Below, piece after piece: positions 2,211 to 24,923 of a DNA stretch of 64,000 bases. Each line of letters opens with the position of its first letter. Within the stretch, counting starts at the first letter, position 1. The translations under genes were made by a program, and so were the position numbers. The stretch lies in the NCBI GenBank assembly GCA_012026655.1, contig JAAILG010000487.1, positions 1-64,000 of the forward strand, written 5' to 3'. The notes under the pieces are model-generated. The model was not told the DNA's origin. It worked only from the letters and a program-made list of their open reading frames with translations, and did not search any database. Source of the stretch: Hydrolagus affinis. Lineage: Eukaryota.

Positions 2211-2308
2211 TCAACAAGCTGAACAGTCAGGGGTTGGACAAGCTAGCTTATAAGCACAGACAAAGTTGAACTGTTTGCTGCAGTCTTCAGTTGACCAGAG
2301 AAAGTGAC
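2211..2308 (-). CDS. Lectin A last coding exon
   Basis: T-rich tract + CCAG acceptor; SHFLWSTEDCSKQFNFVCAYKLACPTPDCSAC then TGA. Confidence 0.88.
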
Positions 2309-5300
2309 CTGGAAAAAAATATGAACAGAATGAGATTTGAACCTTTTCAATACATGAAATAAGTATAGAATTGCATGAGTGACTGAGCAGGGAGAGAAGG
2401 TACTCAGAGCACTCCCGATGACAGACCAGCTAGCCTAGTAAGGAATCTTCCCACCCAGCTCCTGTGAACCCTGCAAGCCAAGCTCTAAAGGTTAAGATGG
2501 GCCCAGCAGGAAGCTTTGCAGGCAATACTTTCAGGACTTGCAACCAGATGTTAACTGTTAAATTCTATCAGTGCTCCAGCGTACACTGTGCTGACCCTAT
2601 TACCAACCCATACGTTGTCCTCTGGAATCAGGAAAGCAGGATGTTTCCATGTGGAGGTGGTGGGATGCATGGAATTCTCTGATGTGGATACTCTGAGTGG
2701 TGAGGGATTTCTGCATAACCACGTCAATTTTTTTTTATTGCTCCTTGATAAATAATATCATGTTGCGTTATTCGTTTGGGAGAAAATATCATCTGACTGG
2801 CAGAATTTACTGGTTCGCAGCAAGTGAGCAACCAGTAAAGGGCTGAATTATACAACGCATTACTATTTACACTTATTTTATGCGCCTTTCATGATGAGAG
2901 GATGTCCAAATGCATTTAAATTATATATCAAACCACCAAGGCATTTCAATAATGATAATAATCCTTGCATTTTATATAGCGCTTGATCACATTTTAGAGA
3001 AGTCTCAAAGCGCATCACAGAATATACTGTAAAGTGAATTGACTATAGTTTGTGGGTGAAACGCGGCAGCCAATTGCGCACAGCAGCGTCCCCCACACAA
3101 ACAGCCGTGAATCGAGGGACCAATTTATTATTATATTTTGAAAGGAATTATTACCGCTGGAAAAGTGGAATAAGGAAACTTGGGCAATATTTTGGTCTGC
3201 CGGGAATCAAACTCAGGTCTCTCGCTTGCGAGTCTAACCACTGAGCTACAGAACTCCATGTCCTGTCACGGCAAAGGGCAATTTCAGGACAGACACCAGG
3301 AAGATTTTGGTTAATCAGAGGGTAAATAATGACTAACAGTTTGCCAGGAAGGATGGTTGAAGCCAGGCATGAAACATATTTAAACTCTGCCTTGATACCC
3401 TGATCTGAGAATGGTTGGGTGAGTATTCCAGTGGGATGAGTTCAGGGTAATAAAAACAATGCTTAGATACAATGCCATAGGCATGGAAAAGCTGAGACAG
3501 GGCTCTCCAAACAACAACTTCGATATATAGCGCCCTCCACGTCTCAGAGCGCTTCACAATAACCGATCCTGAGCCTGAGACAGGTGGAGGGAGAAAAAGG
3601 TGACTGAAGGCACGGTTGAAAAGAAAGGTCTTCAGCTGAGTCCTGAAACTAGGAAGAGAGGGGGCGAGGAGAAGGGAGTGAAGAAGGGAGTTCCAGAGCT
3701 TCGGGGTGTAGTGGCTGAAGGCATGGCCGCTGATAGTTGAGCGGAGGATTCGAGGACAAGGAGGAGACCATAATCGGAGGAGCGAAGGCAGCGGGAGCTG
3801 GTTTGAGGAGAGAGGTCAGAGATGGGAGTGAAACGTCTTGAAAACAAGAGTGAGGATCTTGAAATCGATCCTCTCCAGAACGGAGCCAGTGAAGTCTGAC
3901 AAGGACCGGGGTAATCGGGGAGTGAAGTTTGGTGCGGGTGAGAACGCAGGCGGCAGAGTTCTGAATGAGCTGAAGTTTATGGATTGTGGTGGAGGGGAGA
4001 CCGGCGAGGAAGGCGTTGCAATAGTCCAGCCGAGAGGTGACAAAGGCGTGGACCAGAGTTTCAGTGGCTTTTGGGGTGAAGTATTGCCGGAGACGGGCAA
4101 TATATTGCGGGTAGAAAAATATAGCGTTGGTGAGGGACCGAATGTGGGACTGGAGGGTGCCTGTCAGCGCAAAATTTACATAAATAAGAATTCTGCCTTT
4201 CAAACATGATCTGCTTTGAAGTGGCATCGAGCCTTTGTGTGTCATTCACATACATATGAGAGAAAGTCAACTTACTCTTGTGGTTGAGTGCAACGCAACT
4301 CTCCTTTCCATTTGCGTTCAATGGTTCACTGGGACACCAAGCTGTGTGGTCCATGGGTGTACCATCAGTCCAAACAAAAATCCCCTCCTACGGGGAATCA
4401 ATCACATTTTAATTACCTATCGCCAGCTGTCCAACAATCCCAGGAAAGGATGAGTCGAGGCTCCTGCAGATTCATGTTGTATTGGCCTATTGGGAAACTG
4501 TTGTGCTGTGCACAGTGACACAGGATTGTGCTTTATACACTTAATTAGAATTGTACTGTATATATTAGTATGTACTGTAGTTTTTACTGTGTTTATTTGT
4601 ACAATACTATACTGTGTATATGGTACAGTATTGCAACCTAATACATTGTGTGTAATGGTAGTTCTGTAAAATACTGTGCTGAGTAATGTAGAGTACAATT
4701 ACAGTTGTGTGTACGGTGTTGTGGGGTTCACACTATTACAGTATTTTGCACAATTGCTGGGTTGCAAAGTGAGTTGTGAACCTCAGGCGGACCAGGTAGT
4801 TACCAGTTTAATGCGACACGCTTCAGGCCTGGGACCCAGTCACCTGCTTTCTCAATACAGTATCTTGGAAAGAGATTATTTAGAGATTGGAAAATAAATT
4901 GTGGGAATAATAATAACAAAAATACATTTGGTGGAGCCAGAAAAAGGTGATACTTACTTTGCTGCAGTCACTGCCTCCAAGCCATGTATACGGATGTGTT
5001 ATATACGAGACCTCAATCACATTTTTGACAAACATATGATTCAATCGGCAGTGAATGGACGCAAGGTGGCCATCGGGAGCAGTTTGTTTGCAGTATTGCT
5101 GTGGATTGAGTAACGAAAAATCACAGTTATTCATTTCAAAACAAGAATTGATACTTTAACACCTATAACGACTGTATATTTGTGGGTGAAACGTGGCAGC
5201 CAATTGCCTACAGCAGACTCTCACAAACAGTAGTGGATTGAAATGACCTTTTGGTTTAAAAAGGATTATTATCAGGCGTGTGGAATAAGGAAAGGTTTCG

Positions 5301-23000: not shown

Positions 23001-24923
23001 CCCCATGTCCAAATGTTACTATGGACAAGTCCAAACATTAATATTGTGTCCTTTGGTTTTTCAGTTGTTCTGTCAAAACCTGATCAGTGGAGGGCATCTC
23101 GCCTCTGTGCATTGCCCGTTGCAAAACTTGTTCCTCTCAAGCCTCATACAGATCTCATACCACCATATAGAAACCATGACGTGGATTGGTGCCAGTGACT
23201 GCTATAAAGTAAGTACTTTAATAGGATATGGCATGGAAACAGATTATTTGCCCCAAATAGTCTGTATTTATCCTCCACACGAGCTTCCATCCCTCCAACT
23301 CCCTCCCCTCCACCTCCGCATTGCTTTCACCCTCATGTATGTATCAAGTTTCCGCTTAATAATAATAATCCTTGATAAAGCGCCTGATCACATCAGAGAG
23401 CCATCTCAAAGCCCATCACAGAATATATTGTAAAGTCTATTGACTGTGTATTTTGTGGGTGAAATGTGGCAGCCAATTGGGCACAGAGGTCTCCCACAAA
23501 CAATCGTGAATTGAGTGACCAAATTATTTTTCTTTTGAAAGGATTATTATCCACAATTGATTATTATCCATTGATCGACTAACAACCATGTTCCTACTTA
23601 CACCTGGCTAAATCGAGGTGTGCAGAGCAAGGAAACTTGCCCAGGTTTTGCCCCACCTGGGAATCGAACCCCGGTCCTCTCGTTTGTGAATTGATCATGC
23701 TAACCACACCACACCATGGAACTCCAAACCGCTATGCTCAGCACTCCTTAAACATGTCAATACTTTTTGGTTCAAGCACAGCCTCTGGTAATGAGTTCCA
23801 TAATCCCACCAATCTCTGCACGAAGAAGTTCCTCCGAAAATCCCTTTCAAATGTCACGTTCCATATCCTCAAAACGTTTCAGTTTGCAAATGATTTCTCT
23901 GCACTGATAAACTTTTATTGGTTTGTTTCAGGAGGGCACTTTTCTGTGGACGGACGGTTCGCTGATGAACCACATTGAATGGTATTACAGCGAGCCCGAT
24001 GATGGGGACCGGAAGGAAAACTGTGTGATGATGGACGAGAACCGTATGTCAACTGTCCTTGTGCTGGCAAAAGCAATAATCTGGGATTGAGCCAATTATT
24101 GAACCTTGTAACTTCGCACATGTGCACACAACATCAGAGGCCAACAGGGATACTTGGATACTTGAATGGTTTGATGGACTACTACAGTGTAGTCTGTACT
24201 GCGTGTTCTACTACAGTGGAGTCTGGCTACTGGTTGTAATTCCAGGGAGGGAGGATAAAGTTATGATGTGAGGTTTAAACGCTGGGGTGGTTTTGTCAAT
24301 AGATCAAATAGACATGTTGAAAAGTAGGGCAATGGGATTCAAGGAAATTGCACCGGTGAAGGACGCGAGCCCTGAGATGATGTGGGGGGACAGGCAGGGG
24401 AATGGGGTTAGATGTTTCCAACGAGGGAAGCTCACACTTGAGAATTGGAGGAAAAGCAAGATATTTGTTGTTTTTTGATCAGCCAGGTGCTTGCCAACCA
24501 CAGAAATCAACACTTCGCCAGCTCAGATAGAGAAGTTTAGAAGTCTAGAAGTTTAGAAGACTCCAGTATGTATGTATCATTTGTAGGAATATTTTTGTTA
24601 CTTCTGACTTGCTTGGCCCAGGCAGCTTTTTCTCATACAGTGGGTGAGTTTCAGAGAGATGTTATCTCTCTCTCTCTCTCTCATCCATTTCACCCCAGAG
24701 AGCTTTTAGATGTAATACTTATTTCATCAATCTCAAAATGGTGATTGTAAAGAGCAACCTCTGGGACATCACCATATTAATGGAAGATGGCCTTGTGACC
24801 GCCTGTATGACTGTCTCATGGTGCGTGTCTGTACTTTGTTTTCCAGGGAATGGGCTGTGGTTCGACTCCGACTGCTCTCAAGAGTATAACTTCATTTGCT
24901 CCTACAAATTGGGCAAGACATAG
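20044..24923 (+). CDS. Lectin B: secreted C-type lectin, paralogue of lectin A, 186 aa; join(20044..20095,21780..21955,23065..23208,23932..24043,24847..24923)
   Basis: 52+176+144+112+77=561 nt in frame with canonical splice sites. Signal peptide MLISVLVLSWTIFMNAAEA; motifs WIDAELFC, GGHLASVH, WIG, WTDG, EPD, ENCV, WFD, FIC. Confidence 0.9.
20280..20440 (-). mobile_element. SINE 3' half
   Basis: Tail and Deu core. Confidence 0.8.
21470..21670 (-). mobile_element. CR1 fragment
   Basis: SYQETLEKLGLLSLEQRRLRGDVIKVFKIMKG. Confidence 0.8.
21780..21955 (+). CDS. Lectin B coding exon 2
   Basis: EAIYVPPVESYPVSDYGGQGESLCHETGVCNGPCLEGFASYNGICSKYIHEKMKWIDAE; GAG|GTAAC donor. Confidence 0.9.
22150..23010 (-). 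mobile_element. L2 LINE fragment with an internal inverted segment
   Basis: ADDTHLY...LHLNVNMTE...VRNLAILFEPQLSF; a plus-strand ETFIHAFVTSRLNY piece at about 22410-22545. Confidence 0.8.
23065..23208 (+). CDS. Lectin B coding exon 3
   Basis: LFCQNLISGGHLASVHCPLQNLFLSSLIQISYHHIETMTWIGASDCYK; AAA|GTAAGT donor. Confidence 0.9.
23358..23725 (-). mobile_element. SINE copy in a lectin B intron
   Basis: Tail, core and head. Confidence 0.8.
23932..24043 (+). CDS. Lectin B coding exon 4 (112 nt)
   Basis: EGTFLWTDGSLMNHIEWYYSEPDDGDRKENCVMMDEN; TTTCAG acceptor, GTATGT donor. Confidence 0.9.
24847..24923 (+). CDS. Lectin B last coding exon
   Basis: RNGLWFDSDCSQEYNFICSYKLGKT then TAG; TTTTCCAG acceptor. 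Confidence 0.9.

Follow-up and report, generated by a model that had tools for sequence, protein, structure and literature searches.

Two head-to-head C-type lectin-like genes of Hydrolagus affinis are long-diverged members of a six-gene chimaera family

Several systems that deploy a C-type lectin-like domain (CTLD) outside the cell have been described. Ca2+ site 2 of the domain is made up of an E/Q-P-D/N triplet and a W-N-D triplet, and in the same source snaclecs are described as lacking E/Q-P-D/N entirely and having swapped long loops (PMC6468738). The type II antifreeze protein (AFP), defined by ten Cys in five fixed bridges with a C-C pair at the start of strand β3, is encoded by six exons that include untranslated region (UTR) and signal exons as well as CTLD exons of 126 and 109 nt (PMC2440524). 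Structural precedents are provided by the spicule matrix proteins of sea urchins, in which a CTLD is combined with Gly-rich sequence, and by the nematogalectins (PMC4944945). Among fishes, a C-type lectin from the skin mucus of Heterodontus japonicus is cited in PMC8444439 and PMC10707392, the ratfish has a glandular venom spine, and C-type lectins are present in toadfish and scorpionfish venoms (PMC4448160). Here we describe two genes, A and B, that lie head-to-head on contig JAAILG010000487.1 of the chimaera Hydrolagus affinis (assembly GCA_012026655.1, which is fragmented and comprises 1.11 Gb). The stretch that was analyzed, called the window below, is the first 64 kb of this 97.5-kb contig. 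Both belong to a six-gene chimaera family whose products have a single CTLD and predicted signal peptides, and they diverged long ago.

Searches of the genome contigs revealed four further genes in which the exon boundaries match and the motif S-[IV]-H-C is present, namely C11798, C54195, C1102 and C60575/C18911. The last of these is spread over three contigs (C60575, C180199 and C18911) that represent one gene, as their ends overlap exactly over 171 nt. Gene A is 64% identical to C11798 and 54% to C54195, versus 42% to B over the shared CTLD columns (69 identities in 175 columns in a local protein alignment), a value that confirms the strong divergence recorded for the pair in the initial annotation. 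In a 13-row tree, the seven holocephalan rows formed a clade against the six others (support 95/97). Within that clade A grouped with C11798 and C54195 (99/97), B grouped with its ortholog from Callorhinchus milii (99/96), and the resulting A-type and B-type lineages were sisters (94/91, not starred). In an approximately unbiased (AU) test, a clade joining A and B with the C. milii ortholog of B was rejected (p 0.015; p 0.020 in another AU test), and a test on A and B alone was set aside as trivial because the B ortholog was left out of it. A long CLEC3A-like row was omitted from all trees, and a 34-aa fragment of C60575 that had been left out of earlier trees was joined to C18911 in the 13-row tree. 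Among the sequences compared, which comprised five non-chimaera rows and the output of word-limited searches, the six-gene clade was found in holocephalans only and appears to be confined to them. Because B has an 81%-identical ortholog in C. milii, the split between A and B is old and probably predates the divergence from that species. The proposal that A and B make up an exclusive two-partner system is not supported, given that A has two closer paralogs elsewhere in the genome and that the clade uniting A with the two B sequences was rejected; judged from the tree, B appears to have no exclusive partner.

Signal exons were seen in four of the six genes (A, B, C11798 and C54195), and none was located for C1102 or C60575. 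The coding exon of 112 nt and the start context TTTAG...TGAAAG, which had been taken as marks of the pair, are indeed present in both A and B, but they recur in C11798 and C54195 and hence are not pair-specific. Matching exon length and start context are therefore family traits. The exon measures 109 nt in C18911 and 124 nt in C87871, and the start context is made up of the splice acceptor of the ATG-bearing exon together with its 5' UTR. As a 13-mer, this context occurs once per strand in the window, where about 0.002 occurrences are expected on a crude uniform-base estimate.

The six core CTLD cysteines are present in A and B, and additional cysteines were found beyond these. A Cys directly after S-[IV]-H was found in all seven rows of the clade and in none of the six others, and a Cys after W-x-G-x-x-D (Asp-Cys) in six of the seven and likewise in none of the others. 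Because the His-Cys and Asp-Cys residues co-occur, they suggest a new disulfide. An N-terminal Cys pair is shared by all five A- and B-type rows and absent from the other eight. All three A-type rows have further Cys at the positions of residues 144 and 214 of A, and both rows in which exon 5 was seen have tail Cys as well; the gene model of C11798 contains 17. Since the count in A is odd (15 Cys), at least one of its thiols would remain available to bond another chain, and the count in B is even (10 Cys).

The E/Q-P-D/N triplet of canonical Ca2+-dependent lectins is retained in B (E-P-D at 145-147) and not in A (E-P-L at 217-219), and the canonical W-N-D of strand β4 is found in neither, the corresponding residues being W-F-D in B (166-168) and W-S-T in A (238-240). 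These data bear out the initial distinction between a near-intact Ca2+ loop in B and its absence from A, as most site-2 residues are kept in the former and lost in the latter. The A-type genes as a group are without site 2 (E-P-L or E-P-S, with W-S-T or W-S-D). The sugar-specificity triplet of B varies across three chimaeras: it is E-P-D in the window (codon 147, at 23998), E-P-N in X1, a DNA run of a chimaera-like relative, and Q-P-D in C. milii. That the triplet shifts yet stays within the Ca2+-binding set suggests that B still binds Ca2+.

Full-length XP_042191371.1, the C. milii ortholog of B, matched Pfam Lectin_C with E 6.7e-19, and single exons gave sub-threshold matches only (3 of 6 exons, E 0.017-0.062). 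An AlphaFold2 model of this ortholog built on a 35-row alignment (predicted local distance difference test (pLDDT) 81.9, predicted template modeling score (pTM) 0.76) has the secondary-structure order of a CTLD, with residues 1-26 below pLDDT 50. In the ESM Atlas model (pTM 0.74) the nearest clusters were REG4 and type II ice-structuring proteins. The predicted structures thus show a canonical CTLD fold for the B ortholog. A Lectin_C match, the core C0-C0', C1-C4 and C2-C3 cysteines, a W-I-G-L-type motif and the fold model together identify the domain as a long-form CTLD. The signal peptides of A and B were called by eye from a hydrophobic stretch. With one long-form CTLD per gene and neither a transmembrane segment nor another folded domain, the group VII-like layout of free secreted CTLDs assigned to the two genes at the outset was supported.

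Exon 2 carries a variable low-complexity stretch ahead of the CTLD that ranges from about 20 to about 730 aa across the family and spans 56-729 aa in five of the six genes. The tail of A is 94 aa long (Pro 13%, Tyr 9%, with Lys also prominent) and opens with a short amphipathic cationic stretch (residues 28-38, hydrophobic moment 0.73). Y-G-P-type repeats characterize the tails of C11798 (68 aa; Pro 18%, Tyr 15%, Gly 13%) and C54195 (56 aa). The 378-aa tail of C60575/C18911 is a Ser/Gly/Tyr/Gln repeat domain (C60575 85-1335; Ser 19%, Gly 17%, Tyr 12%) and contains 25 G/S-Y-G/S motifs. A Pro-rich tail of 729 aa in C1102 (6989-9418, minus strand) contains 14.2 copies of a 123-nt unit and precedes a CTLD that keeps E-P-N and W-N-D. 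The tail of B is a Tyr/Pro/Gly stretch of only about 20 aa. We applied the silk-like rule of SilkSlider, by which a secreted protein qualifies when Gly makes up 25% or more of a window of 80 residues (PMC4944945). One gene of the six, C60575, reached this Gly content (29% in 80 aa), and it is the strongest candidate for a structural protein in the family. When the genome was searched with the tail of A, one match among 11 candidates was obtained, which was the tail itself. Exon 2 of A gave no real Pfam family (a weak PT-repeat match had E 0.06) and no usable match in the ESM Atlas. Plant-defensin matches to the N-terminal Cys stretch of A (E 0.035-0.065) were weak and were treated as chance.

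Splicing by coordinates yielded five coding exons for each gene (Table 1). Gene A runs from 10000 to 2211 on the minus strand, encodes 265 aa and ends in a TGA codon (2213-2211); gene B runs from 20044 to 24923 on the plus strand and encodes 186 aa. Both are intact, with canonical AG/GT splice ends and zero internal stops, and both have a fourth coding exon of 112 nt and intron phases 1,0,0,1, and in each an AATAAA lies no more than about 90 nt from the stop codon. The two ATGs are 10,044 bp apart. The spliced models therefore uphold the opposite-strand arrangement, the gap of about 10 kb and the intron phases given in the initial annotation. The upstream region that the genes were said to share fared differently, since DNA likeness between the two sides is limited to repeats and to the ~100 nt that immediately precede the ATG. 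Comparison of the A side with the B side gave 32 matches, every one of them on interspersed repeats and none in a coding exon, and at least 20% of the 10-kb spacer matches repeats found in other sequences examined. No mirror-image similarity was detected between the spacer halves except for repeats. The 500 nt upstream of the two ATGs align only over their last ~100 nt, with a score that was reached by 2 of 200 shuffles. A recent inverted duplication is rejected because all 32 DNA matches are non-coding and lie on repeats. An old event is plausible at the base of the sister A and B lineages, and the head-to-head layout may be a fossil of an inversion or inverted duplication at that root. Gene A appears to have a proximal promoter of its own, predicted about 220 bp above the ATG; the same layout of TATA box, short exon and short intron was seen by eye in paralogs C11798 and C54195.

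Table 1. Coordinates of genes A and B and of the spacer between them (positions in the window)
Feature	Position	Strand	Basis
A coding exon 1, 46 nt, phase 1: ATG, predicted signal peptide	9955..10000	-	hydrophobic stretch seen by eye
A coding exon 2, 401 nt: ~94-aa Pro/Lys/Tyr-rich tail, Cys pair 113/120, C0-C0', extra Cys144, CTLD start	7881..8281	-	splicing, alignment
A coding exon 3, 141 nt: C1, SIHC (Cys166), WLGG, SDC (Cys194)	4958..5098	-	splicing, alignment
A coding exon 4, 112 nt: long loop of full length, extra Cys214, E-P-L replacing E/Q-P-D/N	4276..4387	-	splicing, alignment
A coding exon 5: W-S-T replacing W-N-D, C3, C4, tail Cys 257/262/265, stop	2211..2308	-	splicing
A candidate polyadenylation signal AATAAA, use predicted	2129..2134	-	sequence
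A predicted non-coding first exon; TATA-like box ~10225, splice donor ~10125	10125..10225	-	sequence reading
Spacer between start codons, 10 kb	10001..20043	.	DNA comparison
B coding exon 1, 52 nt, phase 1: ATG, predicted signal peptide	20044..20095	+	splicing, signal by eye
B coding exon 2, 176 nt: ~20-aa Tyr/Pro/Gly tail, N-terminal Cys pair 41/47, C0-C0'	21780..21955	+	splicing, 78% to C. milii XP_042191371.1
B coding exon 3, 144 nt: C1, SVHC (Cys93), WIGA, SDC (Cys122)	23065..23208	+	splicing, alignment
B coding exon 4, 112 nt: long loop of full length bearing E-P-D, C2	23932..24043	+	splicing, alignment
B coding exon 5: W-F-D replacing W-N-D, C3, C4, stop	24847..24923	+	splicing
B candidate polyadenylation signal AATAAA, use predicted	25006..25011	+	sequence

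Several other features were noted in the window and the genome. A very abundant repeat family resembling a short interspersed nuclear element (SINE) has many copies in the window (for example at 2950-3150, 9205-9500, 13630-13980, 20310-20440 and 23360-23700) and dominates the read depth in DNA and RNA alike. Tail-to-tail with B, at 30175-46637 on the minus strand, is a gene for a fatty acyl-CoA reductase (FAR) whose exons encode NAD_binding_4 and Sterile domains, and a second FAR gene is located on contig C7798. The contig that bears C1102 also carries a PARP12-like gene. Around the promoter and signal exon, C11798 (7859-8274) and C54195 (3064-3479) are 96% identical over 416 nt, whereas their CTLD protein is only 64% identical, which suggests that the 5' end underwent gene conversion or that the assembly is collapsed. 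A canonical lectin exon of shark-like type with S-I-H-W is present on six small contigs (L022, L023 and L031-L034) in copies that are 95-99% identical; in one copy, L032, E-P-N and W-N-D were seen. These copies represent a recent tandem expansion, and some may be alleles. Finally, at least 150 single-exon CTLD matches were obtained (150 of 370 candidates scored) on contigs C6085, C14915, C41201, C38998 and others, many of them in tandem on one contig, and they represent a large, separate CTLD expansion.

Exon 2 of B retrieved one protein from two candidates, the C. milii 'lectin-like' protein XP_042191371.1 (78% identical), which points to a holocephalan host, in keeping with the cartilaginous fish suggested initially. 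This protein is a one-to-one ortholog of B that is 81% identical over the CTLD region and has all ten Cys and W-F-D; it differs from B in that the annotated model is without a signal exon and in having Q-P-D in place of E-P-D. Its name is automatic, and the literature searched yielded no study of this protein. When it was used as the query, three of seven candidates passed, namely the protein itself and two catshark lectins at 46%. For A, a comparison of exon 2 with longer proteins gave no ortholog among 32 candidates, which is weak evidence. A profile search of cluster representatives was dominated by multi-CTLD proteins, and three of the best 150 rows were single-domain. No paper on these genes was found in the literature searched, which did not extend to most subscription journals; PMC13188829 (CLEC3A only), PMC9999432 and PMC3269628 added nothing on these genes.

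The free CTLDs annotated as 'lectin-like' in sharks (Scyliorhinus XP_038667666.1 and XP_072326956.1, Heterodontus XP_067915857.1 and Chiloscyllium XP_072418168.1) share with A and B a signal peptide and a single long-form CTLD and are 36-44% identical to them. They differ in having S-[IVL]-H-W, no Asp-Cys cysteine, and Q-P-D or E-P-N together with W-N-D, and they have a short propeptide that ends in K-R rather than a repeat tail and fall outside the seven-row holocephalan clade. Likeness to type II AFP and AFP-like teleost lectins resides in the exon layout described above, in the Asp-Cys cysteine of A and B, which aligns with the post-β2 Cys of the fifth AFP disulfide, in the long-loop Cys of A, which is at the position of a fourth-bridge Cys, and in an ESM Atlas neighbor at 0.94. 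However, both bridge partners (the first Cys of the C-C pair and the Cys before W-x-D) are absent from A and B, which instead have the new Cys after S-[IV]-H that co-occurs with Asp-Cys. Antifreeze function was rejected on this Cys pattern, as A and B have a single Cys at the C-C position. Proteins of REG or group VII (lithostathine, REG4 and struthiocalcin) are likewise secreted single long-form CTLDs, often without sugar binding, and REG4 was the top ESM Atlas cluster for the B ortholog (0.95); lithostathine scored 64.8 bits in the PDB search, whose scores do not set REG apart from the remaining CTLD groups. In contrast to REG proteins, A and B have extra Cys and repeat tails and their neighboring gene encodes FAR; the tree contained no REG sequence. 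Snaclecs resemble A and B as paralogous secreted CTLDs with an N-terminal β0 strand, C0-C0' and a degenerate W-N-D, but A and B keep E-P-x and a long loop of CD23 length that aligns to CD23 over 34 residues without gaps. No snaclec was present among the 43 matches of B exon 4 or among the best 60 of 72 for A exon 4, and the parallel that had been drawn with snake-venom-type alpha/beta heterodimers is not supported, given the canonical E-P-x long loops of both genes. The sea urchin spicule matrix proteins and nematogalectins are similar in architecture only, being secreted proteins with a lectin-fold domain and a Gly/Pro-rich repeat. The chimaera repeat, in contrast, is N-terminal and contained within one exon, and the silk-like Gly threshold was reached by just the one gene named above.

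Both genes, introns included, were recovered from run X1 in pieces that are ~97-99% identical to the window, and none of the pieces listed bridges A and B. At least 16 exon codon changes were found relative to X1, and among those listed none gave a stop codon and none fell at a Cys. Exon 4 of B has at least 6 differences in 112 nt, above the ~2% of the surrounding contig. The RNA data came from one single-cell sample of a close relative (runs X2-X4, of which 27-30% each was covered). For A, 2-4 reads were found on exon 3 and zero over most of exon 2; for B, 2-6 reads were found on exons 3 and 4 together with some intronic reads. No splice joint for A or B was among those listed for this sample. 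First mates lie on the plus strand for A and on the minus strand for B, as would be expected from the opposite strands of the genes if the library is stranded. These trace reads show neither expression nor silence, and no co-regulation.

We tentatively propose, at a little short of even confidence, that A and B are cross-linked components of a secreted extracellular material rather than an obligate A-B pair. The material could be mucus, egg jelly or capsule, or the matrix of sperm packets. In such a material, the CTLD head, probably stiffened by a His-Cys/Asp-Cys disulfide, would dock on matrix glycans or proteins. B would dock through a Ca2+ site 2 that is missing one ligand (W-F-D), and A, having lost site 2, would link chains by means of one or more unpaired Cys. 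The disordered Tyr/Pro/Gly tails would supply bulk as well as tyrosines for oxidative cross-linking. Each gene would be driven by its own proximal promoter, with the head-to-head layout a relic of an old inverted duplication. Egg capsule or jelly is a candidate secretion, and skin mucus likewise. The Leydig-gland matrix of sperm packets is another candidate (PMC8388383). In favor of the proposal are the low-complexity tails of five of the six genes, the extra cysteines of the clade, the odd Cys count of A, the loss of site 2 from the A-type genes, the CTLD model of the B ortholog with its low-confidence start, and the presence of both genes in run X1 without a stop or lost Cys among the changes listed; the precedent, in sea urchin spicule matrix proteins and nematogalectins, is architectural. 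A number of observations weigh against this proposal. B is almost without a tail, and A and B both fail the silk-like Gly rule (7% and 11%, respectively). A furin-type K-V-K-R directly precedes the CTLD in C60575, and K-R is found there in the shark relatives; because of these sites, some tails may be cleaved propeptides and not structural parts. Ten of the 16 codon changes alter the residue, which hints at weak constraint or diversification. Variation of the B triplet within the Ca2+-binding set fits a defence lectin equally well, and the RNA evidence comes from one trace-level sample (2-6 reads per exon position).

A different explanation, which we regard as possible though doubtful, is that A and B serve innate defence as soluble lectins in secretions of the skin or mucosa. 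They would act separately, with B binding glycans in a Ca2+-dependent manner and A using a sugar-independent surface, comparable to REG3 or the bullhead-shark skin lectin. This explanation is consistent with the closest relatives being 'lectin-like' proteins of sharks in which W-N-D and either Q-P-D or E-P-N are intact, with the skin mucus lectin of Heterodontus japonicus, with the shifts of the B triplet among chimaeras and with the amphipathic cationic start of the A tail. The near-identical multi-copy canonical lectin in the genome (6 exon-3 contigs, 95-99%) is also a pattern typical of defence genes. Arguing against defence are the loss of W-N-D from both proteins, the A-type genes without site 2, and the long Tyr/Gly/Pro repeat tails and up to 17 Cys, which are absent from the shark lectins compared (5 rows). 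As venom components of the dorsal spine, by analogy with nattectin in toadfish, A and B would have the ratfish spine gland and the toadfish and scorpionfish venom lectins (PMC4448160) in their favor, and snake venom lectins rank high among the single-domain PDB matches (BJcuL, 73.4 bits). These scores are not specific to venom, however, as CD23 (69.1 bits), aggrecan (65.2), lithostathine and type II AFP (62.0) follow closely. In addition, A and B each had one best match in genome searches, B is well conserved in C. milii, and no chimaera venom lectin was found in the literature searched; we consider a venom role very unlikely.

B might instead pair with A, or with any of three A-type chains, in a disulfide heterodimer formed through the N-terminal Cys pair and co-regulated from the 10-kb spacer. 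The sister relationship of the A-type and B-type lineages, the restriction of that Cys pair to their five rows, the retention of site 2 in one chain and its loss in the partner, and the trace reads that A and B each gave in a single RNA sample, their first mates oppositely oriented, are all compatible with such a dimer, and terminal Cys cross-link some venom lectins (PMC6468738). Against it, features of the snaclec loop are absent, given the retained E-P-x, the gapless CD23 loop match and the lack of any snaclec among the matches listed. If the five pairs suggested by co-occurrence form, the ten Cys of B leave none free for a single interchain bond. The tree gives A closer paralogs and rejects the clade of A and the two B sequences. 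Bidirectional promoters are under ~1 kb in size. The 10-kb spacer is far above that, and A has a predicted promoter of its own. On balance, such a heterodimer is improbable. Returning to the cross-linked material, a bolder and equally improbable version is that a chimaera-specific kit of lectin-headed, repeat-tailed structural proteins builds a vertebrate biomaterial such as egg capsule, egg jelly or the matrix of sperm packets, in which one Ca2+-binding B would pair through its N-terminal Cys with any of three Cys-rich A-type chains, and these would polymerize by spare thiols and tyrosines. The disulfide is not described in the literature examined.

If the pair turns out to be two ordinary mucus lectins, the value of these findings is one of annotation only. 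Their interest rests more on the tailed, Cys-rich family than on the head-to-head arrangement. The series E-P-D, E-P-N and Q-P-D beside W-F-D is a natural one in which to ask whether Ca2+ and sugar can be bound without the asparagine of W-N-D. Secreted single CTLDs have been recruited repeatedly, for antifreeze, eggshell, venom and gut defence, and a clade that swaps its tails within one exon and has cysteines of its own would provide named candidate genes for the secretions of chimaeras.

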